DNA of 64,000 nt from Mnemiopsis leidyi (lineage: Eukaryota), in NCBI GenBank assembly GCA_048537945.1, contig CM108484.1, positions 8,995,785 to 9,059,784 on the forward strand. The letters run 5' to 3'. The notes under the pieces were generated by a model, which saw only the letters and a program-made list of their open reading frames with translations, was not told the DNA's origin and did no database searches. Numbering within the stretch: the first letter of the stretch is position 1; each line of letters begins with the position of its first letter. Position numbers and translations under genes: made by a program. This document shows, piece after piece, positions 1 to 57,300 of the stretch.

Positions 1-827
1 TGCTGGGTCTTCTCACTTACCGTGTCCATTGGGGGCAAGGTTTGATGACGCGGCTGAGGAGGTGCCTGAAGAGCGATCAGTTCAATTTATCCAATATTTA
101 TGCCTGTCTCAACTCCCTTGCTCAATCATTGAGAGTGAGGCATCAAATGTTTGAAACTCTTTTTGTAATTAGCACAAATTTGAAGTATTGAGAGCAAAGT
201 GTAGTATACTGTATGGCAATTAGGAGCTTTAGCTTGCGGGTGTCCAGAGAACAGTTTACGGTTAAGTTCTTAGCGCAATACCAGTTATCATAGTCCAATG
301 CTCGTATAAATGTGGGTTTACGCAAAATGCTGACACGGTAGTGGTCTCATAATAATTTACGTCTTTGAAACATAATCTTTATGCTGCTTCCAAACATAAA
401 CCTAAAGTTTCAATAAGTTTGCAGAAATATAGTTTCATTAAGTTGGAAGAAAAATGTCGGTACCTTCTTTACATCTTCTCTAGGGAGGTTGGAGTAGTCG
501 TTGGAGTAGGATGGGCGGTTGTTTGCGGAGCTGGTTCTAGGGACCACGCTGTTGCGAGAAGGTGGAGGAGGGTGGGTGGCGACATTATCGTTAATGCTGC
601 TCACACTTCCACTCTGCGGGTTTGATAAGATGATTATCTTATTTAAATTCAACAGATTTTGCCAGTTCACCGGACAGACTGATCTTAATTTAGTAGCCAT
701 ATATAGCAATACCTGAGCTTGAAACAGCTATTTATGCAAAATATATTGATCTTGAAGAGTTGTGAGGCAAAGGTTGTGAGACCTAGGTCTAAATTCTAGC
801 CAGGCTTTCAAAATCACCCCTTACGGC

Positions 828-1070
828 TTACAGTACATAATAAGCACATTGCAAAATGCAAAGCGACTTGATCCCGGTCACTGTACAAATAGAAACTCTA
901 ACCGAGGAATGAGGAAGATCGTAATCGTATGTCTTGTTTTGCGAGAGCATGGTCTGAAGTCTGCCCATCAGTTCCCGGTTCTGATTCTCCAGAAAAGTGT
1001 TCCTCTGTTCCAAGTTGTTGATTCGAAGTTGCAATGCGCTGTTCTGCTCCTTTAGGTGCGATATAACACG
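828..1070 (-). CDS. Tentative terminal coding exon of a leucine-zipper protein (TSC22-box-like?), ending ...RVISHLKEQNSALQLRINNLEQRNTFLENQNRELMGRLQ... then stop
   Basis: Minus-strand ORF with heptad leucines (L at 7-residue spacing). The acceptor ctttcag precedes the exon. The junction with the upstream exon gives ...YIDNKTIMIAKVDSQQ|RVISHLKEQ..., which resembles the TSC22 box (AIDNKIEQAMDLVKSHL...). Confidence 0.3.
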   Translation of the reverse strand, partial: RVISHLKEQNSALQLRINNLEQRNTFLENQNRELMGRLQTMLSQNKTYDYDLPHSSVRVSICTVTGIKSLCILQCAYYVL

Positions 1071-1188
1071 CTGAAAGTTTATCAAAACTTAGAATGGTGT
1101 AGATTACAATATTTTTGATGAAAAGTGCAGACTCTTGACAGCGGCTTGTCGCAACACGACAAGGCGCTACAAAAATTACACACAATAC

Positions 1189-1372
1189 CTGTTGAGAGTC
1201 GACTTTTGCAATCATAATGGTCTTGTTATCAATGTAATCGTCTCTCTCTGGAACCTGGTCGTAGACGGGCGAGGAGTGTCCCTCCTCCGTGTCCTGGAGC
1301 AGTCCCTCGTCGTACACCGGCTCGTTGTCGCTGTACTCGCTCGGCACTTCGCAGTAGGACGGTTCGTCGTCA
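1189..1372 (-). CDS. Upstream coding exon of the same gene (acidic region PSEYSDNEPVYDEGLLQDTEEGHSSPVYDQVPERDDYIDNKTIMIAKVDSQQ)
   Basis: The open frame ends at donor CAACAG|GTATTG and is frame-compatible with the 828-1070 exon. The 5' boundary is approximate. Confidence 0.3.
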
Positions 1373-3125
1373 TCTGGGAAAACGTCTGGTTATGTTACTG
1401 TGAAAATAAGGTGGGGGAGACATTAAGCAATGATGCGATGCAAGGTAGAGGGTATCAAGAGACATTTACAGGATAGTGGAAGATTTGAATAAAAAGATTT
1501 GCTGAAAAACTGGGGATTTCTAAATACAAGTACGAGTAATAAAGAGAGAAGTAATCTACGTTCTAGAACCCCAAACAACCTGGGATCAGTCCTAGAGTGA
1601 CAGCTAGTGTAGGGTTTATAGAAAGATCGGAGTAGTCACTATTGATCTCACACTCTCTACCGCTCCTTGGCTCACTTTCTAACTCTCCCTCCTCCTCAAG
1701 GACAGCGATCCCCTCCTGGTCAGAATCCTTACGGCGCTTAGTGCAGCCACATAGAAATGAAACCATACACAGTGTACACTGAACAAAACTCAGAAAAGGA
1801 GGGTTTACGATTTCAATACGCAAAGTCACACTGTGAAGAATTGTTATCATATATCATGTATCTTATCTCTCATGACTGCCAGCACCACAGCGCTCTACTC
1901 AGAATCCAGATTAATGCAGGCACCAGGCATTGACGGAAATTAGAACTTATGTCACGTTCGGGGCAACGTTGAAAAATTGCCCTTGTCCTATAACTCTACA
2001 TTCTGCGCCGCAAGATTTCTAGATATACTTTAGGTAATGTCTATACGAATATGATTTGAAATTTAACAGACATGATCGTTATGCACAATAAAGCATATCA
2101 ATCTGCTTAGGCCCCGCAGCAATGATAGAGGAGGGGCAGTGGGTCGCTATAGTAACTATTTATAAAAACCTCTTGTATATGTGTAGGTGACCTCTGGTAT
2201 AAGTTAGCACAGCGCGAATCTTTAAGAATTTTTCGACAAAAAGCTTGCTTGTAGTAGGATGTAAGCTTTTTATAAGTACAAGAAAACTAACATGATCCAT
2301 AGCTGACGTTAGTTGCGGGCCGAGAAATTTGCTCCCTCCGCTTGCCCTCCTCAAGGATGTGAGCGATGAGGATTGCGAAATCTTTAGCGCTGAGCGTCCC
2401 CAACTTTTGTCGACCCTGTCGCAAAAGGTATGTGTAAAATAGATCACCGAATAGTTGATACCGCATCATTTGTATCCTTGAGTCTTGTAATGAAACAAAT
2501 TAATCGACATCTTCTCAAAAGAAGGATTCATTAAAGATCTCTGCATTATAGATGGAGGAGAAGAAGACGATTAATTCAGATAATAAAACGTTGAGAATTC
2601 TGTCGAGGTTGTCTATAGGTTGTGATCAATGAGAAATGACATACTTAACATTGTTACTCTAATATTGAATTAAAATTTAATTTGAAGTTTAGGTTTGAGG
2701 AAGCTTCGATATGAACCAGAAAATTACCTGATTCCTCAACGAGCTGAAGGTGGGATTTGTTGGAAGGAAGCGAACGTCTAGGCCATTGTTGTTTTTGCCA
2801 GCTTTCCACACTGACAAGGGCATTAAAATACATATTCATGTGTTTAGTAAACGATTAAAGGTCAAAGGTGCAAAATAAATAACATTTTCTATGTGTCCTG
2901 TTGTTGGTGGTCAGAAGAGAAACACACAGATAATAAGGGCTTGAAATCTTCGTTTAGTTACATCATAAGAGCCTCAAATTATTTATTAATTAGTAGTAAT
3001 TGTTGAAAGTATTAAAATATATCCTTGTACTCTAAGCAATGCACAGACAATGAGTTAAATTATCTTCACAGCCTTGGGACAAAATGAAAAAAGTCCACGA
3101 CTTAAAAGTACAAAAATTCAACTAC

Positions 3126-3198: not shown

Positions 3199-3406
3199 CT
3201 GAAACGGTAAAATTGTCATTCAACTTAAATCAGATAAGCGCCAGGCGCCTTGTTTCTGCTTCAGTTTGCGAATCGATAAGGAGTTGTTATCGTGTTTGGG
3301 TGGTAAACCTATTTCAGATCAACATTACAAGAAAATTTGTTTCCCAGAGCGCTTGCAACAAGTGATTATGTATGAAAATGAAAATATTACTGTAGTTATT
3401 GTGTCG

Positions 3407-3596
3407 TAATTATGTCAGGTTACCTGACTCAGGTAGTAATAATGTCAGGTTACCTGACTTCGGTAGTAATAATGTCAGGTTAACTGACTCAGGTAGTAAT
3501 AATGTCAGGTTAACTGACTCAGGTAGTAATAATGTCAGGTTAACCGACTCAGGTAGTAATAATGTCAGGTTAACTGACTCAGGTAGTAATAATGTC
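3407..3596. repeat. Minisatellite, 30-bp unit gtcaggttacctgactcaggtagtaataat in about 6.5 copies; each unit contains the 15-bp palindrome gtcaggtTAcctgac
   Basis: Direct tandem periodicity is visible in the sequence. ORF 3399-3614 is an artefact of the repeat. Confidence 0.9.
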
Positions 3597-4244: not shown

Positions 4245-6362
4245 TCAGTGCAAGGATCTCCCAACTGCAATGTCTGAAACAAGTTTCTCCGCCTCAAGCA
4301 GTACATTCAACATCTTGCTACTTGCTTTGCGTTTTCTGGTTATCTTATCAGATTCCTGAACCAAGTCTGCTATCATCTCTTTTGTGTACAGAGACTGTAT
4401 CAGGAGACTGCTAAGGTGAGTTGATAGCTTTCTGACAAAGAATTTCATGACGACTTTAGGTATTGTATCAACGAGATGAGCTCGAACAATACAAAAGTAG
4501 TGTATAAGAAGTTTCTCCATCAACTCTGCTTCTTTGTTAGCTCTTTCTTCGCTCGAGGCGTCTTCCCCTCTCATGTATCTGGTCATCAGTTTCTCCAGGG
4601 CACTTTCCTTGGTTGTGGGCTGATGGTATGTATTGCTCAAGGCTATGCTGTTGGGATTCTGTTTTAGTTTTAGTTTCTCTTTTTCCTCGTCGTGCTCTGC
4701 GAAGAGAGCTGCTGCAACCTGATATCTTTCGATAAACTCCGGATGGTTGGTGTTGATGTAGGCCTTTTCAACCTCCAGATACTCGGCCAAGAACTCCTTA
4801 GCGTCACGAGATTGCTTCATAAGAAAATCTTTAGAAATATTGACCACCTCGCGTTCTAGCTTGGGAAACCTCATCATCACTTTGGCAGCAATCATATCGA
4901 TAGCCTCTGCGATACACTGGTGAGATTTTGAAATAGCATGTTCAGACGGCAAATCAAAGAGATCAAGCTGTTTCAAAATGAGTGTGTTGAACACTCCGTC
5001 AGGAATGAACAAGGCAGGTTGCACGCCGCTTGTTCCCCGGATGACCTCTTTGAGGTTCTTCAAGTTTTTGTCAGCAGGGATAGCTGATAGTGCACTGGTG
5101 CAGTCTCGCTGAAAGACGTTGAACAGTTCAGCCCCAGCAGATGTTTGTTCGGTGACCAGTTTCACTTCGTCTTCTGATTTTATAGATGCTTGAAGCTGGG
5201 TTGACATGCTCTTTTTCACTGGTTTCAGTTTCTTACCAGGCCTCGTGACATTGTAAACAAACTTTCCATCAATGGATTTAGCGATACTATCAGTAAATTT
5301 AGACAAAAGTAGGATCATGGTTTGGTTAGGATCCGTTGGCTCCTCCCCTAAATCTTTTAGGATATCCCGGTGATATGCCTGTTGAACGGATATTTTGTCA
5401 GCTAGAATAGGTAAACACTTCTTCAAATGACTTATGAGGATATCACATAACTGGGTTGTGAGGTACTCAGTGCCCATTCTGTCGGCAAATCCGGGATAGT
5501 TTGCAAGAAAGAAATCCTCTTCCAGTGCAATGATTTTCTCAATAGGTGTTTTTTCAGTCAGCTGTTTGTTGTTTCTGTTTATGACTCCAATGAGTCCTAG
5601 TTTGACGTCCACAGAAGATCCGTTCAAGACGGCGGTTGACTCTTCGTTGTTTTCCATAAGATCACACTTTGTTATGACGGCAATGGTGCGCGATCCAGTG
5701 GGGTCAACTTCTCTGGCCAGCTTTAGAGAGTCCGAGTTAGCGATGTCAACATTTCCAGCCGAGACCGCTAAAATTATACTGTTTTCCTTCACGATGTATG
5801 AGCGGACAAGCTTCTCTATCCGTTGGTCTATGTCCCTCGGTTGATCTCCAACTGGAATCTTGGTGAGACCTGGCAGGTCTACTAGCGTTAGAGACGGGAT
5901 TTTGGTGGAGTAAAGTTTAAGGTGGATAGGGTCATCAGATATTCCTTTATTGGAGCCACACTTCTTATTTGTGTCATCAATAATTTCTTTTTGAATCGAA
6001 TCCATGTTGGTGTAAATCATATCACCACGATGAAGAAATTGAGCCCAGGTTTCAAAACTTTGATCTGGAACTGAAAGCTTGGTAGGATTCTGTACCTTTT
6101 CAGCCCACGAATCGTGATTTGAGCCCCGAATTACTTTTTTGCAGGGAGCTTTTATCATCTGCAAAACAAGAGGTCTTCGGGTAACGATTCCCATTCCTCG
6201 GGGGAGAAAGTTTTGCTTGGCAATGTTTTCAAGAACAGAACTTTTGCCTGTAGATTGAGAACCCACGACTACAATCTGAGGAAGATCTATCTCTTTTGTA
6301 GAAACGCCAGCAGTAGTGAATACATCTTGAAGCCTGTTTAGCGTGGCCAGAAATCGGTCCAT
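4245..6362 (-). CDS. Dynamin-related GTPase, Drp1/DNM1L-like, 705 aa, intronless
   Basis: Single uninterrupted ORF. G1 P-loop GSQSTGKSS, G3 DLPGLTK and G4 TKCD motifs are present. There is collinear similarity to Drp1 (LPQIVVVG.QS.GKSSVLE, RRPLVLQ, IILAV..AN.D.ANSD.LK.AREVDP.G.RT..VITK.DLM) and a C-terminal GED-like region (MIADLVQESDKITRKRKASSKMLNVLLEAEKLV). The start ATG is in context aaagtATGG. Confidence 0.85.
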   Translation of the reverse strand: MDRFLATLNRLQDVFTTAGVSTKEIDLPQIVVVGSQSTGKSSVLENIAKQNFLPRGMGIVTRRPLVLQMIKAPCKKVIRGSNHDSWAEKVQNPTKLSVPDQSFETWAQFLHRGDMIYTNMDSIQKEIIDDTNKKCGSNKGISDDPIHLKLYSTKIPSLTLVDLPGLTKIPVGDQPRDIDQRIEKLVRSYIVKENSIILAVSAGNVDIANSDSLKLAREVDPTGSRTIAVITKCDLMENNEESTAVLNGSSVDVKLGLIGVINRNNKQLTEKTPIEKIIALEEDFFLANYPGFADRMGTEYLTTQLCDILISHLKKCLPILADKISVQQAYHRDILKDLGEEPTDPNQTMILLLSKFTDSIAKSIDGKFVYNVTRPGKKLKPVKKSMSTQLQASIKSEDEVKLVTEQTSAGAELFNVFQRDCTSALSAIPADKNLKNLKEVIRGTSGVQPALFIPDGVFNTLILKQLDLFDLPSEHAISKSHQCIAEAIDMIAAKVMMRFPKLEREVVNISKDFLMKQSRDAKEFLAEYLEVEKAYINTNHPEFIERYQVAAALFAEHDEEKEKLKLKQNPNSIALSNTYHQPTTKESALEKLMTRYMRGEDASSEERANKEAELMEKLLIHYFCIVRAHLVDTIPKVVMKFFVRKLSTHLSSLLIQSLYTKEMIADLVQESDKITRKRKASSKMLNVLLEAEKLVSDIAVGRSLH

Positions 6363-8930: not shown

Positions 8931-10017
8931 ATGTCCCAAACACAATTCACATCAAAACCATTATCATTGGTACGAACTACGAATGCCAAACTTCCTAAAT
9001 CAGTCCTTTGCACAGGATTTTTCACGATTCAATAATCATATATAGTTAGTCACAGTTGTCAGTAGCAAAACTTTGTTGACGTCACTTATATGGCGCTCCA
9101 ATGATCTATAGCAAAGCTGAACAGCTGCTTTTTAATGTACATCTGCCAAATATTTGCAAGACAATGTGAAGTGAAACTGAAATATTCAAATCTATTTAAA
9201 AGTATGCAATTGAGGCTTGAGTGCTCGGCTATTGGCTAATCGCTTGAAATTGAGAATGATTTTCATTTACTGTAGTTGACAGAATTCGAGATTCACAAAA
9301 GGTCAACAGCCAATAACCTAACCCTAATTCAAACATGAAAACAGATGATTATAATTGTTTCTTCCACCAGTCCGTACAGAAACCTATGGCCTATTAAAAT
9401 GATAGCAACCTTGCTATCATTGTGGTACCTTCAATCCAATCCTTCTTTGTCCATGACTGTAAGTAGATACATTTTGAACTATTCCAGCTAACCGGACTGC
9501 TTGAGCAGCTGCGGATAGTAAGTAAAAGTTTCAATAATTCAAGGCTACACGAGACGCACTGAAACCGTAAGTGGGAAATTGATGAAAGTAAGTGTGCACA
9601 AAATAAATCAGGTACAACGTGCGCTAGTCTTGTTCCTAATTTTAATCTCTCCCTGTTAGTTGCCTGGGGAGCTCAGTCTTAGTTGCCTCAGTCTTTGTCC
9701 CCTCTCTACGGAGGAGACCGTGGAGAGAGCCGCGCAACGCCCGGTAACCTGTTTACGACTTCAAACGTAATAAAGAGGCTAGTAAAGTACGATCGATCGA
9801 GAGCTGTGCACATACAGCTCAACGTTTCGTCGCGCGCGTCCAGTCGCGCAAACTGTCACTGATTGGCGATTTGATTTTAAATATTATGTAGTCTCCGCTG
9901 CTTCCTACTCCGATAGATGTATTTCTCAAATGCAGAAGGCCTTTCGGCAAAGTTGTTCCATTGAATACCCTTAAATTGGCCGTTGCAATGGAAAACATAG
10001 AATTTTAAACTCGAAAT

Positions 10018-10835
10018 TGGAAGTGTTCCCACCGTACGATTTTCTTGAAAATTTCAGAGTATGTTCAATTTCAGAGTATGTCCAATTTGGAACAATGGAA
10101 CAAGAAAGTCCAACTCCGTGGTTTTTAAGCTATATCTCGAAAACTAAAAAATAGGCCCCCATTTTTTTCGACGAATTCTTGTAGTATTGATCGATAGGAA
10201 CATTTTGAGAAAGTGTAAAGGAAATTGTACAGTCGGAACACCTCCAAAAAGGCCTTGTTCCATGGTCAGAGTACATATTTCGAGATATTTCCTTGTGTTT
10301 GAGGTTGTATCTCGAAAACTAACACATAGACCCCCCAATTTTTTTACATTTTCTGATAGTTTAGATCAAAAGGAACATACTGTGAAAGTTTAAAGAAAAT
10401 CGCACGGTGGGAACACCTCCAAAAAGGCCTTGTTCCATTGTCAGGGTACATATTTCGAGATATTTCCTTGTGTTTGAGGTTGTATCTCGAAAACTAACAC
10501 ATAGACCCCCAAATTTTTTTACATTTCCTGATAGTTTAGATCAAAAGGAACATACTGTGAAAGTTTAAAGAAAATCGCACGGTGGAAACACCTCCAAAAA
10601 GGCCTTGTTCCATGGTCAGAGTACTTATTTCGAAATATTTCCTTGTGTTTGAGGTTGTATCTCGAAAACTAACACATAGACCCCCTAATTTTTTTACATT
10701 TTCTAATAGTTTAGATCAAAAGGAACATACTGTGAAAGTTTAAAGAAAATCGCACGGTGGGAACACCTCCAAAAAGGCCTTGTTCCAAAATTTTGGCAAT
10801 TTGGAACAATGGAACAAGAAAGTCCAACTCCTCAA
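10018..10835. repeat. Satellite block 1: ~180-bp tandem repeat, about 3.7 copies, subfamily A. It is preceded by an inverted partial unit and bounded by the motif caatttggaacaatggaacaagaaagtccaactcc
   Basis: The 178-180-bp periodicity (e.g. 10240 to 10418) was read directly. The boundary motif occurs at 10083-10117 and 10797-10833. Confidence 0.85.
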
Positions 10836-11045
10836 ATGGAACCATCTATCCACGAACATGATGGATCGATACCACCTATCCATAGGGCATTTCTTCGAAC
10901 CAAAACCACTTTTTATGACACAAGAGGGGTAGAGCAAGTCAAGACCTCGGTCTACAGTGACTTAAGGACGAATCGGCCAGATGTTACACTTGTGATGTCA
11001 CACATGTGACAAAATGTGACGTTTTCAGAACATAGTCGGATCGGG

Positions 11046-11057
11046 CCAATATATAAG
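11046..11057 (+). promoter_or_regulatory. CCAAT box followed immediately by TATATAAG, 36 bp upstream of the transposase-fragment ATG
   Basis: The sequence gggCCAATATATAAGGgagg was read directly. Confidence 0.5.
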
Positions 11058-11092
11058 GGAGGAACGATCCCGAAATATTATCGTCTTTGATA

Positions 11093-11647
11093 ATGGATCC
11101 ATCTACTACTCCAACTATCACCTTTGTTACTGGGAAGAGAGGAGCTCGCAACGCAGTCATCGACAGCTACCGGTACACCAAGAACAGACATCACAAGGAG
11201 AACACCTACTACAGATGCGTCGAACAGACTACCTGTAAGGCCCGCATCACTCTAACTGCCGGAGCCCTCTCTTCTTCTCTGCCTACACACTACCACCCGT
11301 CGCAAGAAGCAACTATCGCAGTGTTGGAAGTGAGGAACTCGATCAAGAAGCGGTCTGCGGAAACCGACTTGATTACAAAAGAGATCGTTGCTGACTCTCT
11401 TGGAGCCTTAGACTTTGAAGGGGTGGCGAACCTCAACTGCAAGATATCCTCCCTCTCGAAAATGGGTAGACGAGCACAACAGAAAGCCAACAAGACACCT
11501 CCACCCCCTACCTCTTTACGAGACATCGCCATCCCCCCTACCTACATGACGAGCTTACAAGGAGAGAACTTGCTGATCTGGGGCTCTGGATATACCGAAG
11601 AGAAATTACGGGGTTTTAGAAGATTATACATTTTGATTATTGTGTAG
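11093..11647 (+). CDS. Fragment of a FLYWCH-type zinc-finger transposase (N-terminus of a MULE/Mutator-like transposase), truncated and degenerate after about 180 aa
   Basis: The FLYWCH pattern fits: F..GKRG....SYRY.......YYRC.....CKARI.......HYHP. The downstream IPPTYMTSLQGENLL resembles the conserved start of the MULE catalytic region. The ORF then terminates early. The listed ORF starts at TTG 11087; the first ATG is at 11093. Confidence 0.5.
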   Translation: MDPSTTPTITFVTGKRGARNAVIDSYRYTKNRHHKENTYYRCVEQTTCKARITLTAGALSSSLPTHYHPSQEATIAVLEVRNSIKKRSAETDLITKEIVADSLGALDFEGVANLNCKISSLSKMGRRAQQKANKTPPPPTSLRDIAIPPTYMTSLQGENLLIWGSGYTEEKLRGFRRLYILIIV

Positions 11648-11689
11648 AATTACGATACAAAGTACCAATACAAAGCTTAATCTTAAAAT

Positions 11690-11920
11690 ACGTTGTTTAA
11701 ATTATTCTGTAAGAATCTGCGAATCAAAAATTATAAAATGTCAAATAAGACGTTTAGCTAAATGGTCCATTAGGTAAATAGTCCGAAAAGAGGACGATTT
11801 AGCTAAAAATGAAACTAGTAACATTTTAGCTATATGGTCCGATCCGGGGACTATTTAGCTAAAATATAATTTAGGTGAAAAGACCCTTTTAGCTAAATAG
11901 TCTGTTAGCTATAAAGTCCT
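11690..11920. repeat. Cluster of six or more short direct motifs TTAGCTAAAT(A/G)GTCC, subterminal-repeat-like, downstream of the transposase fragment
   Basis: Read directly: ttagctaaatggtcc, tttagctaaaaatg, ttagctatatggtcc, tttagctaaaatat, ttagctaaatagtct, ttagctataaagtcc. Confidence 0.5.
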
Positions 11921-12019
11921 GGAATTGTTCAAAAATTTTAGGTTAAACCTCGACACGGAATCATTTTTCCTCAATTTTTTAAAATTTTATAGAATAAACG
12001 AAAATTTTCTGTATTTCAA

Positions 12020-13345
12020 GAATAACTTGGAACACACTAAGAAAATCGTAAGGTCGGAAAACTTCCAAAAAGGCCTGGTACCATGGTCACTGGTCAGCGT
12101 ACATATTATGAGATATTTCCTTGTGTTTGAAGTTGTATCTCCGAAACTAACACATAGACCCCCAAATTTTTTTACTTTTTCTGATAGTTTAGATCAAAAG
12201 GAACATACTGTGAAATTTTAAAGAAAATCGCACGGTCGGAACACCTCCAAAAAGACCCGGTACCAAAATTTCGGCAAAAACCAACTCCGTGGTTATAATA
12301 ATATCGAGAAAACTAACACATAGACCTCAACTTTTTACGACGTAATCTTGTAGTTTGAATAGTAAGGAACATACTGTGAAGGTTTAAAGAGCAATCCTAT
12401 GGTCAGAACACCTCCAAAAAGGCCTGGTACCATGGTCGGCGTACATATTTTGAGATATTTCCTTGTGTTTGAAGTTGTATCTCCGAAACTAACACATAGA
12501 CCCCCAAATTTTTTTACTTTTTCTGATAGTCTAGATCAAAAGGAACATACTGTGAAATTTTAAAGAAAATCGTACGGTCGGAACACCTCCAAAAATGCCT
12601 AGTACCATGGTCAGCGTACATATTATGAGATATTTCCTTGTGTTTGAAGTTGTATCTCCGAAACTAACACATAGACCCCCAAATTTTTTTACTTTTTCTG
12701 ATAGTTTAGATCAAAAGGAACATACTGTGAAATTTTAAAGAAAATCGTACGGTCGGAACACCTCCAAAAATGCCTAGTACCATGATCAGCGTACATATTA
12801 TGAGATATTTCCTTGTGTTTGAAGTTGTATCTCCGAAACTAACAGATAGACCCCCAAGTTTTTTTACTTTTTCTGATAGTTTAGATCAAAAGGAACATAC
12901 TGTGAAATTTTAAAGAAAATCGTACGGTCGGAACACCTCCACAAATGCCTAGTACCATGATCAGCGTACATATTATGAGATATTTCCTTGTGTTTGAAGT
13001 TGTATCTCCGAAACTAACACATAGACCCCCAAATTTTTTTACTTTTTCTGATAGTTTAGATCAAAAGGAACATACTGTGAAATTTTAAAGAAAATCGTAC
13101 GGTCGGAACACCTCCAAAAATGCCTAGTACCATGATCAGCGTACATATTATGAGATATTTCCTTGTGTTTGAAGTTGTATCTCCGAAACTAACAGATAGA
13201 CCCCCAAATTTTTTACTTTTTCTGATAGTTTAGATCAAAAGGAACATACTGTGAAATTTTAAAGAAAATCGCACGGTCGGAACACCTCCAAAAAGACCCG
13301 GTACCAAAATTTCGGCAAATTGGTACCATGGTACCAGAAAGTCCA
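12020..13345. repeat. Satellite block 2: same ~180-bp satellite, about 7 copies, subfamily B (ggcctggtaccatggtcagcgtacatattatgag variant). It ends with a variant of the boundary motif.
   Basis: Periodicity e.g. 12421 to 12601. Consistent subfamily substitutions relative to block 1. Confidence 0.85.
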
Positions 13346-13469
13346 ACTCAGATGATTCCACAAAATTGTATATACTTCTGGTACCTCAGAGCGTCTCCCT
13401 GGAATTTCTTTCATTGATTATGATATAGGTACTTGGTGTATAAGCGGCAATTTCACAGATTAGCCATTA

Positions 13470-13990
13470 TCATACCCCAGACTCCTTAAATGAACGGAAT
13501 GAACGAAAATAAACAATTTTTTGAAGCTGCCCGAAATGTTCTGAAACCGATTGGAATGGGTTGGTGTCGATCTAACTAAGTAACAAGTTTCCCCACTAAG
13601 TTTTGAGGCCCGAGAACGTCTAGCATGGTCACAAGGGCCTGGTTCAAAAGTTGTCCCAATCAGTATCCTAGATTTTGGAACCAAGCTTGGACAGTGATTT
13701 GGGACCCTTAGACAGTGTTCCGTGGTGTTTACATACTATATTTGGATGAGGACCTGACGTTCGCGTGTGGTAGCCCGAAATGACGCCCAGAATCCCCAAA
13801 TGAACGTAATGAATTAAATAAAAAAGAGCAAGTTTTTAAAAGTTTCAGAAATGTCCCGAAACCGATTGAATTTGGTTAGTATCGCTCTAACAAGTACGTT
13901 GTCCTGTAAAACTTGGACGCCCGGGAACGTCTGGAACAGTCACAATGGCCTGGTTGCGAAATTGTCCCAAATTTTCTTGAGAGTTGTGAA
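13470..13990. repeat. Two diverged tandem copies (about 310-bp period) of a unit containing gaacgtctag/ggaacagtcacaa(g/t)ggcctggtt
   Basis: Segments 13470-13690 and 13780-13985 align at roughly 70 percent. Confidence 0.5.
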
Positions 13991-14693
13991 GATGTCTATA
14001 AAAATGTACAAATCATAGGCTTTTAGACGGGGAAACAGGAGCTGTAATAAACTGCCTACTAAATTGAATATTAAATGTTTCTGAGCGGATAAAAGTACGA
14101 TCAAACTTCTAGTGAAACTTTTTTCTCGCTTTTTTTGTCATTATGTGCCCTACTAGTTAGACTAGAATGTATCCTTACCTCAACCGACCCCCCCCCCCAG
14201 CTATTTATGGCCTGGTTTAAAAGCAATAGAACAGCAACCTAACTATGCCTTGGTAAGGCACCCTAAAAATTAAGCTAACAGCCGCAGTCCTAGCAATCAC
14301 ATTCTGTATCACAAAATGTAAATTTAAGTTTGGCTATGAGAATCGAAAATGCTATAAATTTCTTTGTGTTTCATGATAAAGGACCTAACCCTAATCAAAC
14401 CCATGTACCCTATCCCATTGTCAGAGGCACTTTATTAGACGTTAGCCACCATGGCGAACGTAACTTCATGCCACAGTATGACGTAAGTAAATTTGCTCAC
14501 AATGCAAAGTCGCATAAGACATCCTTGATCAGCGTAATATGTGTCACACTGTCGTACCATTGTACAATGTACACCAAGGATTTCGATGGGCAGACTAATG
14601 TTCATAACATTGTGCAATGATTATGCAACTGTTCAATGATTCATAGGAATCAAAATAAGGGTAGCTTTAAAATATATAGCTAATGGACGTCAA

Positions 14694-15885: not shown

Positions 15886-17685
15886 GTTTGTGTAGAAGCT
15901 TACAACTACCTAACAGTTTGTGTAGCAGCTTACAACTACCTAACAGTTTGTGTAGCTTACAACTACCCAACAGTTTGTGTAGCAGCTTACAACTACCTAA
16001 CAGTTTGTGTAGCAGCTTACAACTACCTAACAGTCTGTGTAGCAGCTTACAACTACCTAACAGTTTGTGTAGCAGCTTACAACTACCTAACAGTTTGTGT
16101 AGCAGCTTACAACTACCTAACAGTTTGTGTAGCAGCTTACAACTACCTAACAGTTTGTGTAGCAGCTTACAACTATCTAACAGTTTGTGTAGCAGCTTAC
16201 AACTACCTAACAGTTTGTGTAGCAGCTTACAACTACCTAACAGTCTGTGTAGCAGCTTACAACTATCTAACAGTTTGTGTAGCAGCTTACAACTACCTAA
16301 CAGTTTGTGTAGCAGCTTACAACTACCTAACAGTTTGTGTAGAAGCTTACAACAACTTAAAAGTTTGTGTAGCAGCTTACAAATACCTAACAGTTTGTGT
16401 AGCAGCTTACAACTACCTAACAGTTTGTGTAGCAGCTTACAACTACCTAACAGTTTGTGTAGCAGCTTACAACTACCTAACAGTTTGTGTAGCAGCTTAC
16501 AACCACCAAACAGTTTGTGTAGCAGCTTACAACTACCTAACAGTTTGTGTAGCAGCTTACAACTACCTAACAGTTTGTGTAGCAGCTTACAACTACCTAA
16601 CAGTTTGTGTAGCAGCTTACAACTACCTAACAGTTTGTGTAGCAGCTTACAACTACCTAACAGTTTGTGTAGCAGCTTACAACTACCTGACAGTTTGTGT
16701 AGCAGCTTACAACTACCTGACAGTTTGTGTAGCAGCTTACAACTACCTAACAGTTTGTGTAGCAGCTTACAACTACCTAACAGTTTGTGTAGCAGCTTAC
16801 AACTACCTAACAGTTTGTGTAGCAGCTTACAACTACCTAACAGTTTGTGTAGCAGCTTACAACTACCTAACAGTTTGTGTAGCAGCTTACAACTAGCTAA
16901 CAGTTTGTGTAGCAGCTTACAACTACCTAACAGTTTGTGTAGCAGCTTACAACTACCTAACAGTTTGTGTAGCAGCTTACAACTACCTAACAGTTTGTGT
17001 AGCAGCTAACAACTACCTAACAGTTTGTGTAGCAGCTTACAACTACCTAACAGTTTGTGTAGCAGCTTACAACTACCTAACAGTTTGTGTAGTAGCTTAC
17101 AACTACCTAACAGTTTGTGTAGCAGCTTACAACTACCTAACAGTCTGTGTAGCAGCTTACAACTACCTAACAGTTTGTGTAGCAGCTTACAACTACCTAA
17201 CAGTTTGTGTAGCAGCTTACAACTACCTAACAGTTTGTGTAGCAGCTTACAACTACCTAACAGTTTGTGTAGCAGCTTACAACTACCTAACAGTTTGTGT
17301 AGCAGCTTACAACTACCTAACAGTTTGTGTAGCAGCTTACAACTATCTAACAGTTTGTGTAGCAGCTTACAACTACCTAACAGTTTGTGTAGCAGCTTAC
17401 AACTACCTAACAGTTTGTGTAGCAGCTTACAACTACCTAACAGTTTGTGTAGCAGCTTACAACTACCTAACAGTTTGTGTAGCAGCTTACAACTACCTAA
17501 CAGTTTGTGTAGCAGCTTACAACTACCTAACAGTTTGTGTAGCAGCTTACAACTACCTAACAGTTTGTGTAGCAGCTTACAGCTACCTAACAGTTTGTGT
17601 AGCAGCTTACAACTACCTAACAGTTTGTGTAGCAGCTTACAACTACCTAACAGTTTGTGTAGCAGATTACAACTACCTAACAGTT
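15886..17685. repeat. Minisatellite, 30-bp unit cagtttgtgtagcagcttacaactacctaa in about 60 highly homogeneous copies (1.8 kb)
   Basis: Direct tandem periodicity. The large ORFs on both strands (15888-17009, 17006-17725, 17025-17711) translate to a 10-aa periodic peptide and are artefacts. Confidence 0.95.
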
Positions 17686-29089: not shown

Positions 29090-29257
29090 CTGCGGTTAAT
29101 TACGGAGTACGTGGCAAGAGGTAAACCGAAATCAGCGAACCGCTCAATATTGTAAATAATTGTTAATTTCCTAATGATATTTGATAAAGCTGTAATGACG
29201 GATTCATTGTCATTATCAGCTGTATTATCACAGTTAACAGTTATTTAAAAATGACAT

Positions 29258-29735
29258 TAACCTAACAACGACAGTAATCTAACAACGACAGTTTTCTAAC
29301 AACGACAGTTTTCTTACAACGACAGTTACCTAACAACGACAGTTACCTAACAACGACAGTTACCTAACAACGACAGTTACCTCACAAAAACATTTACCTC
29401 ACAACGACAGTTACCTAACAACGACATTTACCTAACAATGACAGTTACCTAACAACGACAGTGACCTCACAACAACAGTTACCTAACAACAACAGTTACC
29501 TAACAATGACAGTTACCTAACAACGACAGTTATCTAACAACGACAGTTACCTAACAACGACAGTTACCTAACAACAACAGTTACCTAACAACGACAGTTA
29601 CCTAACAACAACAGTTACCTCACAACAACAGTTACCTAACAACGACAATAATCTAACAACGACAGTTACCTAACAACGACAGTTACCTAACAGCAACAGT
29701 TACCTAACAACAACAGTTACCTAACAACGACACTA
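29258..29735. repeat. Minisatellite, 17-bp unit cgacagttacctaacaa in about 28 copies. It lies in the PWP2 intron immediately 3' of exon 8. On the gene strand each unit reads AGGTAACTGTCGTTGTT.
   Basis: Direct tandem periodicity. The array ends 17 bp from the exon 8 donor CAG|GTAACTGTCC, and that donor has the same sequence as the repeat unit. Confidence 0.9.
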
Positions 29736-29944: not shown

Positions 29945-32130
29945 GGTATAGAGAAGTTATACCGATACTGGTGATATAGAGAAGTTATACCGATACAGGT
30001 GATATAGAGAAGTTATACAGATACTGGTGATATAGAGAAGTTATACAGATACTGGTGATATAGAGAAGTTATACCGATACAGGTGATATAGAGAAGTTAC
30101 ACCGATACTGGTGATATAGAGAAGTTACACAGATACTGGTGATATAGAGAAGTTACATCGATACTGGTGATATAGGGAAGTTATACCGATACTAATAATA
30201 TAGAGAAGTTATACTGATACTGGTGATATAGAGAAGTTACACCGATACAGGTGATATAGAGAAGTTATACCGATACAGGTGATATAGAGAAGTTAAACTG
30301 ATACAGGTGATATAGAGAAGTTAAACTGATACAGGTGATATAGAGAAGTTATACAGATACAGGTGTTATAGAGAAGTTATACCGATACTGGTGATATAGA
30401 GAAGTTATACCGATACTAGTGATATAGAGAAGTTATACCGATACTGGTGATATAGAGAAGTTATACCGATACTGGTGATATAGAGAAGTTATACCGATAC
30501 AGGTGATATAGAGAAGTTATACCGATACTGGTGATATAGGGAAGTTATACCGATACAGGTGATATAGAGAAGTTATACCGATACAGGTGATATAGAGAAG
30601 TTAAACTGATACAGGTGATATAGAGAAGTTAAACTGATACAGGTGATATAGAGAAGTTATACAGATACAGGTGTTATAGAGAAGTTATACCGATACTGGT
30701 GATATAGAGAAGTTATACCGATACTAGTGATATAGAGAAGTTATACCGATACTGGTGATATAGAGAAGTTATACCGATACTGGTGATATAGAGAAGTTAT
30801 ACCGATACTGGTGATATAGAGAAGTTATACCGATACTGGTGATATAGAGAAGTTATACCGATACTGGTGTTATAGAGAAGTTATACAGATACTGGTGATA
30901 TAGAGAAGTTATACCGATACTGGTTATATAGAGAAGTTACACAGATACTGGTGATATAGAGAAGTTATACCGATACTGGTGATATAGAGAAGTTATACCG
31001 ATACTGGTGATATAGGGAAGTTACACAGATACTGGTGATATAGAGAAGTTACACCGATACAGGTGATATAGAGAAGTTATACCGATACTGGTGATATAGA
31101 GAAGTTATACCGATACTGGTGATATAGGGAAGTTATACCGATACTGGTGATATAGGGAAGTTATACCGATACAGGTGATATAGAGAAGTTATACCGATAC
31201 TGGTGATATAGAGAAGTTACACCGATACTGGTGATATAGGGAAGTTATACCGATACTAATAATATAGAGAAGTTATACCGATACTGGTTATATAGAGAAG
31301 TTACACAGATACTGGTGATATAGAGAAGTTATACCGATACTGGTGATATAGAGGAGTTACACAGATACTGGTGATATAGAGAAGTTACACCGATACAGGT
31401 GATATAGAGAAGTTATACCGATACTGGTGATATAGAGAAGTTATACCGATACTGGTGTTATAGAGAAGTTATACCGATACTGGTGATATAGAGAAGTTAT
31501 ACCGATACAGGTGATATAGAGAAGTTATACCGATACTGGTGATATAGAGAAGTTATACCGATACAGGTGATATAGAGAAGTTATACCGATACTGGTGATA
31601 TAGAGAAGTTACACCGATACTGGTGATATAGAGAAGTTACATCGATACTGGTGTTATAGAGAAGTTATACCGATACTGGTGATATAGAGAAGTTATACCG
31701 ATACTGGTGATATAGAGAAGTTATACCGATACAGGTGATATAGAGAAGTTACACTGATACTGGTGATATAGAGAAGTTACACCGATACTGGTGTTATAGA
31801 GAAGTTATACCGATACTGGTGATATAGAGAAGTTACACCGATACTGGTGATATAGAGAAGTTACACCGATACTGGTGATATAGAGAAGTTACACAGATAC
31901 TGGTGATATAGAGAAGTTATACCGATACAGGTGTTATAGAGAAGATATACTGATACTAGTGATATAGAGAAGTTATACCGATACTGGTGATATAGAGAAG
32001 TTATACCGATACTGGTGATATAGAGAAGATATACTGATACTGGTGATATAAAGAAGTTACACCGATACAGGCAATTAAAGCAGTTATACTGATACAGGCG
32101 ATACAGAGAAGATTTACTGATACTGGTGAC
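29945..32130. repeat. Minisatellite, 28-bp unit gatatagagaagttataccgatactggt in about 78 copies (~2.2 kb). It lies in the PWP2 intron immediately 5' of exon 8. On the gene strand each unit contains TTCTCTATATCACCAG.
   Basis: Direct tandem periodicity with A/G and C/T point variants. The array ends about 25 bp from the exon 8 acceptor. Confidence 0.9.
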
Positions 32131-54119: not shown

Positions 54120-54372
54120 ATTAGTAGTAGTAGTAGCAGCAGCAACAGCAGGAGGGGGAGGAGGAAGAGGACTGAGAAGGGGTAGGGGGAGGAGGAGGAG
54201 GAGGAGGAGGAGGAGGAGGAGGAGGAGGAGGAGGAGGAGGAGGAGGAGGAGGAGGAGGAGGAGGAGGAGGAGGAGGAGGAGGAGGAGGAGGAGGAGGAGG
54301 AGGAGGAGGAGGAGGAGGAGGAGGAGGAGGAGGAGGAGGAGGAGGAGGAGGAGGAGGAGGAGGAGGAGGAGG
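54120..54372. repeat. Compound trinucleotide microsatellite (AGT)n(AGC)n followed by about 61 pure copies of (GGA)n
   Basis: Read directly. ORFs 54063-54434(-) and 54076-54381(+) (poly-L/poly-R) are artefacts. Confidence 0.95.
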
Positions 54373-57300
54373 ACTAGATGATACGTCAAACCCGTGTACC
54401 GTCTTACGTTAGTTTTGTAGTTTAAAATTCGCAATCGCCTTTCAATCCTGAATATCCTAGATACGCGACAATTACATTTACAAGGACCTTTAATTACATG
54501 GAGTTAAAGTGAAATGAGTGAATTAACATGCGGTAACAAGTTGATAGTGGCAATTGCTATGTTTTAACTTTCAAGTCGCTCTGCACGATATAACATCGTT
54601 GAGGTGGAACTACTAACATGCCCATAAAATGATATGGATAACCTACAGAGTTGCAACAATCTTACTACAATCATGTGTAGAAACGCTAAAGTCAGAATCG
54701 CACGCCAAATTAGTACCTCGCCAATACGCTAAGCTATAACAGCGTATCAGAGCCAACTATCGACAGTCGTAGGCTACATTTTCATTATCATTGTTATTTT
54801 GATAAGTGATTGTCAATGAAATTTACTGATCAGGGGAATATCACAGTATGGTTTTTGAATAACAGTTCTGAAATCCAGTCTGCGCTGGAAAAGAACGTCC
54901 GTGTAAAAGAAATGCGCGGTACTCTTATATTCTGCATTACTAATCACTCTAAATTTGACTAGTAAAATAGTTGAAAATGGGACAGGCCAAACTACAATGG
55001 ACTTTTGACTAGTGAGTGGTGATGGCAGCGAACCGATTAAAGTAACACTCTTGTCTGTCTTACGTTCAGTCTAGAAATGGAAAACAGCGTATCATGCTTG
55101 CATACTGGCGTGGCGCAAGAAACGAACATTTAGTAGAACAGTAAAATAAATACGTTATTTTGGAGGGTCCTTTTCAAAACGGCCGTACATATTTTGTTGA
55201 AACAGTGCATTTTACTCTAGACCTCGATAGTCAGAGAATATATCAGAGTTACTGAGCAGATTCTGGAAAGGAGAATCTGCACTCGCGGTTTGTGCATTTA
55301 ATTAGTAAGGAGCATTTCGTGTCAGCCAATGTTCACCACTGACTACTGGGTAATATTCAGGATGTCGGGTCAGAGTCAGTGTCTTACCCCACTTATTTTA
55401 TCAGTGTCTTACCCAACTAGTTTTGTGTAGGTTGTTTTTTAAACAAGTTATTTAGCGATATTCACATCATACATGAGATTAAGATTTATAGATTAGGAAC
55501 ATTTGAAATCGAATTTTAACGTGAGGAATATTGAGTGATGGCAGTCACTAGTCAGTTCTTAGTATTGCATTTATATCAAGCTCTATTACTCTATTAATAC
55601 ACTGTGACTAACCTGAATTGAGACGCATGTCTCTTGTTCTGCTCTGCTGCTGTGTTACACATTATATTATATCAGGATACAGTTCTTAAATCTGGCGGAT
55701 AAAAAATTTGTGTTATTATCTTAATTCGATAAGAGGGGTTTTTAGGGACATGTTTGGTCAATTAGAGTTTAACTAGGTTTGTGTTTAAAGGTGTTAAGAA
55801 ACGCTAAGATACAATTACTAATTAGGATACAGTACACTTTAAGATCATAGTTCGACTTTAATAGAAAATGATCAATTTTCTTGAAACAGTACATTCATCA
55901 CAATTCACATCAATGATCTGACCTTTAGATATACAAATATATAAATGCCTTCTTGCAGGGAGCTAAATATTTGGACTTAACGGAGGCTTATCCTCTTGAT
56001 AATCCCATTTAAACTCACGAACACTACAAAAAGGGATGTTGAAAAGTTTTTTCAGCATGATACAGTCACTAATTGGGATAAAACATTGTAGCCACTGTGA
56101 TAACTTGATACTTATTTATAATTTAAGCGCTTTAACATTTATGGCTCCTCGTGTTTGAGGAGTAATGGAAAATTTAATAACAAAATCACATATAAACTGA
56201 ATGCCTTAATCAAAATCTAGGATATAAATTAGTATTACCTTTAAATAGAAGTTAGCACTCGACATTAAGTTCACTGTAGAATTCAAGAATCAGACCAAAT
56301 CTGGACAAAATGATATCCTGCAAGTGGGATACTTATTGTAAATTGACTTAAAATTTATATTAAATGTAAATGTATTTAATACAATAATACATTACACAGT
56401 TTCATAATTCATTGAATGTACATTGTAATGTACATTTACATTGAGTATATGTACATTTAGTGTACTATGTGTACACAATGTCAACTGTACAATATATAAC
56501 AATAAGTGAACTCTAATTTACCATTGATTGCACAATATGAAATGCATGTTGGGTCTATAATAAAATTATGATAAGTGGATGACTGTACCACGTGGCTTAT
56601 GTCAAAAAGATTATTTACTTTTGAGAAACGCTATTATAATCACGGTAGAAAACAGAATAAAACTATCATTACAGCGACGCCACTCACCATGCGTACAATT
56701 GCTTGGCTGGGCAATTTAGTTCGAGTTTCGTAGTGTTTAACAAACTATACTGACAACTCGATACGCCATCAGTCTTGGTTCAATGTTTAAGAGACAATGT
56801 AACAGCATCCATTTCACGTATTCATCTCATCCTTTTCCTAAAATTTTAATTTACAAATATAGACCACAGTTTCTAGTTTCAACTATACATAACTTTCTAA
56901 CTTTGAAATATTAGTAAACGTTTATTAACATTTTTGACAAAATAAACTCTTAGTATACATTACATGTTCATTGCACATTGTGGATTAATGCCTTGGATTA
57001 ATGTCTTGATTTGACAATCGTAACTTGAAATAAAAAGTTTTCCAAATTTCTTTTAAATACTAGCAGAACACAAATTATAGTTTCTGATAGTGATCAGATA
57101 GATTTTAAAACAGTTTTATAACCTAAAAACATTCTCTGATTACCAAGGTTGAGTGGCTAGAACCGTCTCAGCAAAATCTGTAGGGCCGTTTGGGAATTAG
57201 GGCCCTCAAGACATAGGACCCGTTTTATAATCTCAAAATATTCTCAGATTAAACTTCATACTGACGCAGGGTTGACGGTTAGCGCATTCTTCTATTAAAC

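Follow-up and report, generated by a model that had tools for sequence, protein, structure and literature searches.

We analysed a 64-kb window of the genome of the ctenophore Mnemiopsis leidyi, in which two short arrays of a 175-bp satellite lie on one strand, head-to-tail, with about 1.2 kb of unique DNA between them (Table 1). The unique DNA contains a 184-amino-acid (aa) open reading frame (ORF) for a FLYWCH zinc finger protein, followed by a cluster of short repeats. This ORF is 100% identical to a hypothetical M. leidyi protein encoded on a 20.9-Mb contig, which identifies the window as nuclear DNA of the ctenophore. An earlier sequence-only reading had suggested that satellite and transposase fragment might share an origin, or that the transposon had targeted the satellite. 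We consider it likely that the locus is instead a dead Phantom-like FLYWCH-MULE remnant next to two arrays of an independent 175-bp satellite, that is, two unrelated types of repeat.

Table 1. Features of the locus, in window coordinates. R, regular satellite unit; D, variant satellite unit; TRF, Tandem Repeats Finder; L005, nearest related transposon copy; L007, metagenome contig with the satellite
Feature	Position	Strand	Basis or remark
Inverted partial R unit, left edge of block A	10017-10071	-	55 nt, 87-89% complementary to R units
17-bp tandem duplication (AATTTCAGAGTATGTYC, x2.3), junction of inverted piece and motif	10050-10088	+	TRF period 17, 95% matches
Satellite block A	10082-10831	+	nhmmer R and D profiles, TRF, motif search
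Block A composition: D positions 54-187, three R units (10218-10742), D positions 1-89		+	nhmmer, unit list
Unique 217-bp stretch with CCAAT	10832-11048	.	sensitive BLAST
Proximal 5' region of the transposon copy	11049-11092	+	94-96% identity to L005 from 11049 on
184-aa ORF (P0001)	11093-11647	+	100% identical to M. leidyi hypothetical protein ACHWQZ_G011745
Coding stretch kept in the window, deleted in L005	11399-11600	+	L005 matches on either side
3' subterminal/terminal repeat cluster	11754-11925	+	seven TTAGCTAAATRGTCC copies in both orientations; terminus ...AGTCCTGGAAT at 11925
AT-rich 113-bp spacer, terminus to block B	11926-12038	.	possibly degenerate satellite; local alignments z = 1.7-3.9
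Satellite block B	12039-13350	+	TRF, nhmmer, identity matrix, alignment with the L007 364-bp repeat
Block B unit 1: R with 7-bp insertion	12039-12220	+	
Block B unit 2: D, ~21-column deletion within motif	12221-12387	+	
Block B unit 3: R1	12388-12562	+	
Block B units 4-7: four R2	12563-13261	+	98-99% identical
Block B right end: D positions 1-89		+	closes with motif variant 13316-13350

The ORF encodes the finger and linker of a FLYWCH-MULE transposase

The sequence-only reading proposed that the ORF encodes a FLYWCH zinc finger followed by the conserved start of a MULE-type transposase, and asked for hidden Markov model (HMM) support. The finger, which has a WRKY-GCM1 fold, was confirmed: residues 11-68 match Pfam FLYWCH (PF04500) at E 9.6e-9, with 35.7 bits against a cut-off of 23.6, and the zinc ligands C42, C48, H66 and H68, which are invariant across the family in our alignment, are all retained. 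After the finger the ORF continues, up to about residue 170, into a linker that is conserved in FLYWCH-MULE transposases, and the shared part corresponds to the N-terminus of such transposases of 450-520 aa. Residues 11-175 align to the first 179 residues of P0022, a 472-aa M. leidyi protein (64% identity, E 5e-79), and the ORF is 36% identical to P0026 by BLASTP (E 2e-34). The Pfam search of the ORF gave no match to a MULE domain, even at E values up to 10. The alignment with P0022 ends at residue 179 of that protein, whose MULE domain (PF10551) begins 17 residues further on, at 196; because it stops before this domain, the ORF consists of finger and linker, with nothing catalytic. Thus, the proposed transposase start holds as N-terminal homology to proteins with both domains, and none of the catalytic domain is present in the ORF.

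The first homologue search returned only short Mnemiopsis-like proteins, in which parts of a longer protein are linked to each other at varying points, with the motifs DGTF, CYFHF and RSNNFVEGWH among them. A hand-made composite of these pieces, used solely as a query, recovered P0022, P0025, P0026 and P0027, each with a FLYWCH finger and a PF10551 MULE domain, the latter at about aa 190-290 by Pfam (in P0022, the finger is at aa 15-72 and the MULE domain at aa 196-288). A phmmer search against 1.84 billion representative sequences found 532 relatives, many of which align to query residue ~175 within proteins of 450-480 aa. FLYWCH and MULE domains occurred together in 10 of 10 of the longer relatives scanned (362-1261 aa), and full-length relatives extend ~300 residues beyond the part shared with the window ORF. 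A search of metagenome and viral contigs with the FLYWCH alignment confirmed nothing. Other domain combinations were also seen: P0036 (304 aa) joins a SET domain (PF00856) to a FLYWCH finger, and P0053 (1261 aa) has four FLYWCH fingers and a MULE domain.

The window copy has lost its catalytic half and its 5' end

The nearest copy of the element, L005 (the contig that encodes P0007), matches the window at 11049-11398 (94%) and 11600-11815 (91%). With two further related loci, L004 and L006, the window shares coding sequence only as far as 11595-11601. These alignments place the breakpoint of the window copy at ~11600-11605, where an internal deletion appears to have removed the whole catalytic domain and the C-terminus. 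The tail of the ORF (KLRGFRRLYILI / KLRGFRRLYILIIV) is common to P0007, in which it is preceded by quite different sequence; therefore, the last ~14 codons of the window ORF are 3' untranslated region (UTR) read in frame after the internal deletion.

Downstream of the ORF, the motif TTAGCTAAATRGTCC is present in seven copies on both strands between 11754 and 11919, against 0.28 expected. The cluster had been described as subterminal-like, and the comparison with L004 bears this out: this locus is a deletion derivative from a sister subfamily, 1.9 kb long and complete, in which clusters of the same motif, inverted relative to each other, form both ends, and the ends include a perfect 33-nt inverted repeat. 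Five ends were aligned, namely the 3' ends of the window copy and L004 and the reverse-complemented 5' ends of L001, L002 and L003, and all five lose similarity right after ...AGTSnnGGAAT(C/T). Since the five agree, the terminus of the element lies at 11925. In the window, no cluster of TTAGCTAAATRGTCC was found on the upstream side of either the ORF or block A, so the window copy has lost its 5' end. Of the two terminal inverted repeats expected of the element it keeps the 3' one, and with no MULE catalytic domain it is a non-autonomous remnant of its family. MULE elements are expected to be flanked by target-site duplications of 8-11 bp, usually 9 bp; the nine bases on either side of L004, the one complete copy, do not match by eye.

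Many different internal deletions were found among the paralogues. One paralogue, P0002 (187 aa, from a cluster of 15 members; L006, 640-740), represents the N-terminal ORF of a transposase gene that is nearly full length and is broken by a frameshift within a 28-nt AT-rich stretch ending ...TTTCTCAG, after which the downstream ORF continues HLMLDGTF.... The clustering of ORF ends near residue 170-180 in several paralogues raised the possibility of a short isoform under selection, which we rejected as the causes differ, being a deletion in the window and a frameshift in L006. A further FLYWCH-MULE deletion derivative occupies positions 341-2233 (minus strand) of L003, a 3.5-kb metagenome contig, beside hemocyanin/tyrosinase-domain ORFs.

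The family resembles the Phantom subclass of Mutator, described by Marquez and Pritham 2010 (as cited in PMC3169594) and by Dupeyron et al. 2019 (PMC6446971). Its member Tm1-A from root-knot nematodes has a FLYWCH finger at 5-66 and a MULE domain at 197-294 in a protein of 496 aa, and Tm1 elements have ends of ~14-bp tandem repeats and 9-bp target duplications (PMC3169594). The full-length relatives of the window ORF share this transposase architecture, and it is on architecture alone, not phylogeny, that we call the family Phantom-like. Foldback-like ends with a variable number of 14-15-bp repeats and numerous internally deleted non-autonomous derivatives are further points of likeness. The window copy differs from Tm1-A in having neither catalytic domain nor 5' end, and its host is a ctenophore; the main text of the 2019 survey (PMC6446971) contains neither 'ctenophor' nor 'Mnemiopsis'. 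Our results document that Mnemiopsis has a Phantom-like, foldback-ended FLYWCH-MULE family, which includes apparently full-length copies beside numerous derivatives formed by deletion.

The 5' region of the remnant

A TATA-like box (TATATAAGG) at 11050-11058 lies ~43 nt before the ATG, and a TATA-like element is found at a similar distance from the ATG in L003, L004, L005 and L006. This box is probably the element's own, putative, promoter. The sequence-only reading had seen an apparently intact CCAAT-TATA promoter here, of which only the TATA part survives comparison with relatives: L005 diverges directly upstream of 11049, between CCAAT and TATA, and on this alignment the CCAAT box, being outside the conserved part, cannot be assigned to the element. 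In sensitive BLAST, the 217-bp stretch that contains it resembled neither the 5' regions of the related elements nor any other part of the window. We considered this stretch as 5' transposon sequence and set the idea aside, as it matches no related element; those 5' regions are themselves mostly unalignable with one another.

Two small arrays of a 175-bp satellite with a higher-order structure

TRF gave a period of 175 bp in both arrays (10133-10787, 3.7 copies, 92% matches, score 1070; 12039-13294, 7.2 copies, score 1927), so that the two arrays described before stand, with their ~180-bp unit corrected. Searches with nhmmer unit profiles confined the satellite to 10017-10831 and 12039-13350, and no further copy of the satellite or of the transposon piece was found elsewhere in the 64-kb window. 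The arrays are small, 0.75 kb (A) and 1.3 kb (B). Identity among regular units is 94.9% inside A and 95.9% inside B, compared to 89.4% between A and B, and seven fixed differences set the regular units of the blocks apart, in agreement with the two subfamilies proposed before. The repeat is a satellite, made up of tandem head-to-tail monomers homogenised array by array. Rfam and tRNA scans of 9000-14500 returned no hits and thus gave no hint that the unit derives from a short interspersed element (SINE) or a tRNA.

Two types of unit make up the arrays, a regular one (R) and a 189-bp variant (D) that has a 35-bp motif inside it. Block A has the order D-R-R-R-D', or 1.05 copies of a 714-bp higher-order period, and block B the order R-D-R-R-R-R-R-D'. 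The motif occurs exactly at 10083-10117 and 10797-10831 (chance expectation 0), as an 83% variant at the right end of block B, and once inside block B at ~12262-12290. It had been thought to bound both arrays; this is true of both ends of block A and of the right end of block B, but the left end of block B has no motif and the motif belongs to the interior of the D unit.

Copies outside the window were found by translating the unit and then searching proteins, which yielded two small contigs only. L007, a 504-bp contig of an ENA metagenome assembly, is a pure tandem 364-bp repeat of a D unit followed by R1. Its length would equal one 364-bp period plus a 140-nt overlap if 'k141' denotes the assembler k-mer. 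It closely matches window 12221-12562 (~97%, our own count from the alignment), and the motif is complete in L007, whereas the window copy has a deletion of ~21 alignment columns inside it. Because D alternates with a regular unit in L007, the motif is an internal part of the variant unit and not only a boundary. The second contig, L008 (AKGO01000053.1, 283 bp, assembly GCA_000276425.1), has 1.6 units of B type in a different arrangement. It was deposited under the name Staphylococcus epidermidis NIHLM057, carries the annotation 'hypothetical protein HMPREF9989_03434' and is almost certainly ctenophore DNA contaminating a bacterial assembly. Subfamily B variants are therefore present in two contigs of other sources, and a contig of this Mnemiopsis satellite contaminates a bacterial genome assembly. 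Scans of viral, JGI metagenome and prokaryote genome collections with the satellite unit found none.

Several features mark the edges of the arrays. At its left, block A opens with the inverted partial unit that had been noted earlier, which nhmmer matches on the minus strand to positions 151-174 and 1-30 of the R profile. An AATTT/CAATTT microhomology is found where the inverted piece meets the motif, next to the 17-bp duplication. At the right, both arrays end within 1 bp of each other at about D position 89 (...GTCCAACTC). Just before this common end, a hairpin (A, 10 bp; B, 8 bp) is kept by two compensatory changes: every A unit contains the 8-mer TTGTTCCA, the A motif has two copies of the reverse complement of this 8-mer, TGGAACAA, and in subfamily B the palindrome TGGTACCA stands in place of both. 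The folding energy of the hairpin is unremarkable (z about -1.7). This covarying 8-mer is a candidate protein-binding or hairpin site. Our analysis provides a first description of this 175-bp Mnemiopsis satellite, with its two-unit higher-order structure and its covarying inverted 8-mer.

Relation between satellite and transposon

The 175-bp repeat is absent from the complete element L004 and from the partial copies L001, L002, L003, L005 and L006, and in the window block B begins beyond the 3' terminus at 11925. Since six related loci have no such repeat and the satellite is outside the terminus, its origin from the transposon is not supported, and on these comparisons the satellite appears to be neither derived from nor carried by the element. 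The suggestion that internal repeats of the Mutator-like element gave rise to the satellite is thus left without support. It would make 10018-13345 a single element whose internal or subterminal tandem repeats became the satellite. Repeats do flank the transposase remnant on both sides, and repeat-rich ends can occur in MULE and foldback-type elements (PMC3169594). Furthermore, the 7-mer AAAGTCC is shared by the satellite motif (10105, 10819 and 13338) and the transposon repeat (11913), although its six copies in 64 kb are near the chance expectation. However, the arrays are direct and not inverted, the terminus falls inside the interval, with the satellite starting only past it, and the complete 1.9-kb element and five partial ones are free of the repeat. 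In L007 and L008, moreover, the satellite is purely tandem and no transposon sequence accompanies it. We regard the single-element origin as already largely refuted and its chances as very slight.

Simple insertion of the transposon into one continuous array is not supported either, because the sides differ in phase and in subfamily. The other option of the sequence-only reading, that the transposon targeted the satellite, may still be true. The spacer between terminus and block B is weakly satellite-like, but one control segment reached the same z. Neither the spacer nor the segment at 9900-10016 stood out as degenerate satellite in shuffling and control tests (z <=3.9, control equal), and the spacer is at most a candidate.

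Order of events and points that weigh against it

From the sequence identities, the domain content and the terminus observed at the locus, we infer the following order of events. A Phantom-like Mutator (MULE) DNA transposon, with ends built of 15-bp repeats (TTAGCTAWAWRGTCC) in both orientations that would have served as transposase binding sites, lost its catalytic half by an internal deletion near 11600, which is what gap repair usually leaves behind when it is interrupted in cut-and-paste elements. Without the catalytic half and the 5' repeat cluster, the copy is dead, unable to make transposase or to be mobilised in trans. What remains of it are the TATA-proximal region, the 184-codon ORF (FLYWCH finger, linker and 14 read-through codons) and the genuine 3' end at 11925. 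The arrays, for their part, probably change through unequal exchange, and the four nearly identical units of block B look like a recent local amplification. A replication template switch could account for the left edge of block A, with its inverted 55-nt piece, its 17-bp duplication and the AATTT microhomology. On the whole, the locus is an ordinary one, a decayed DNA transposon beside short satellite arrays in repeat-rich DNA.

Several observations weigh against this reading of a remnant beside an independent satellite. Random decay or unequal exchange would not predict that both arrays end at the same point of the D unit, so the shared end counts against it. The stretch 10832-11048 is unexplained and could be subfamily-specific 5' transposon sequence or foreign DNA. 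Because the 5' end is missing, no target-site duplication is readable in the window, and insertion of the transposon at this site is deduced from the intact 3' terminus alone. Finally, the ORF is open, has its zinc ligands intact and is annotated as a gene, and a function of the truncated protein is not excluded. The first and the last of these points are the basis of two alternatives.

Could the arrays belong to a mobile element?

In the first alternative, the arrays would form the central, tandemly repeated part of a mobile element that is non-autonomous, like the Helentron-derived HINE or like MITEs (miniature inverted-repeat transposable elements) with tandem repeats. It would run from a fixed 5' end (CCGTGGTT...) through units that vary in number to an equally fixed 3' end, formed by the hairpin followed by GAAAGTCCAACTC. 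Beside the dead transposon, blocks A and B would then have inserted independently of each other or be tandem copies joined head-to-tail. One reason to think so is the common end position in the D unit, with a chance, by a rough estimate, of <1% for a period of 364-714 bp. In addition, constant D halves surround one (L007), three (block A) or five (block B) regular units, and head-to-tail junctions joining ...GTCCAACTCC directly to GTGGTT... are found in L007 and, in a deleted form, at 12262-12290. The hairpin before the common end, with its two compensatory changes between A and B, and the presence of subfamily B in contigs of two other sources also fit, and carriers of satellites are known from bivalves (PMC7492417, PMC3879986). 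However, a plain higher-order repeat (D + n R) accounts for all of this but the shared end point, and L007 is purely tandem, with no flanks. The covariation comes from two subfamilies only and could be produced by conversion between inverted copies, and the hairpin is energetically unremarkable. There are just two flanked copies, blocks A and B, with flanks that show no mutual similarity, and the ends are not TC...CTRR. Subterminal inverted repeats and a left-flank microsatellite were not seen either, as judged by eye only. On balance we think a mobile carrier unlikely, if less so than the other alternatives considered here.

Other candidates and searches bear on the same edges. A segmental duplication of the blocks was rejected, as neither the left flanks nor the right flanks have similarity to each other, and Helitron ends (5' TC, 3' CTRR) misfit on either strand at the array ends. 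An 11-12-bp complementary pair between the proposed 5' end and the 3' region was not seen by eye, and neither was a left-flank microsatellite; no dedicated search was made for either.

The bivalve systems allow a closer comparison. The Cg_HINE Helentron derivatives of Crassostrea gigas (PMC7492417) and the DTC84 MITE of Donax trunculus (PMC3879986) likewise form short dispersed arrays of roughly similar monomer length, with constant modules enclosing units that vary in number, a stem-loop towards the right end and fragments of other transposons adjoining the arrays. They differ from the Mnemiopsis arrays, in which we found no recurrent unique flanks and, by eye, no subterminal inverted repeats or left-flank microsatellite; the 'flanks' here are a diverged satellite unit, and in L007 the modules form a plain tandem higher-order repeat. 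Mollusc satellites of the classical kind, with higher-order repeats and non-random junctions (Satovic et al. 2016, PMC5139131), share with the Mnemiopsis arrays the abrupt transitions between satellite and other DNA, an array end at a palindrome or hairpin, transposon fragments beside the arrays and subfamilies homogenised within arrays. The Mnemiopsis arrays differ in being just 0.75 and 1.3 kb long and ~4 kb from an intronless dynamin-family ORF.

Pressed further, the idea of a mobile carrier would have the 175-bp repeat travel as cargo in a ctenophore element not yet described, with a 3' end set by the covarying 8-mer hairpin and with the two blocks as independent integrations halting at one and the same nucleotide. 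We hold this specific form to be somewhat less probable still than the general one. More speculatively, the AAAGTCC core common to both repeats might let the FLYWCH transposase or the 184-aa product act on the satellite ends.

Is the FLYWCH-only ORF functional?

The KP element, a derivative of the Drosophila P element, makes a truncated transposase that acts as a repressor. In the second alternative, the 184-aa product would be functional in this way, occupying the terminal repeats of the transposon, or as one of the FLYWCH 'transcription factors' of Mnemiopsis, of which Mukherjee and Moroz (PMC10027918) reported an expansion of 16 genes. The ORF is like KP in that an internal deletion has left a DNA-binding domain without catalysis under the element's own, here putative, promoter. 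In favour of a function are the open frame with its four zinc ligands, the TATA-like box at a conserved distance from the ATG, the likely binding sites 100-280 bp downstream of the ORF, the annotation as a gene in the NCBI assembly and the reported gene expansion itself.

However, the substitution pattern of the window ORF looks neutral. In the first 102 codons, we counted seven nonsynonymous and four synonymous differences from L005, the nearest copy, which is close to neutral, and two residues that are the same in every relative carry substitutions private to this ORF (G25S in DGYRY, and D to G in WDSG). At the C-terminus, the tail comes from read-through of the 3' UTR, and the paralogues have scattered, different deletions and a frameshift, as decaying copies would. 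A domesticated factor should show purifying selection and orthologues that are independent of the transposon; what we observed were seven versus four differences, two private changes and an ORF embedded in transposon 5' and 3' sequence. Taken together, the ORF and its paralogues show the pattern of decaying non-autonomous copies, and we regard a functional product as distinctly improbable.

By the same comparisons, at least the gene model ACHWQZ_G011745 is a transposon remnant. Among its close relatives, P0002-P0010 are deleted or frameshifted copies, and the FLYWCH-only gene models P0002-P0023 resemble FLYWCH-MULE transposase genes that have undergone internal deletion or a frameshift. The published FLYWCH expansion (PMC10027918) may therefore partly count transposon copies; the 16 published genes were not compared with the proteins studied here.

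Neighbourhood of the locus

At 4245-6362 on the minus strand, ~4 kb from the satellite, the window contains an uninterrupted 705-aa ORF for a complete dynamin-family GTPase (Dynamin_N, Dynamin_M and GED domains). Because this ORF is uninterrupted, the arrays have an apparently intact gene nearby. Just to the right of block B are two 84-nt copies of a further, low-copy repeat (13493-13576 and 13808-13891), 315 bp apart and 71% identical. Other tandem repeats in the window consist of 30-bp units at 3406-3596 (x6.4) and 15886-17685 (x60), 17-bp units at 29237-29732 (x29), 28-bp units with a strong GC skew of +0.40 at 29947-32129 (x78), and an (AGG)74 tract at 54150-54373.

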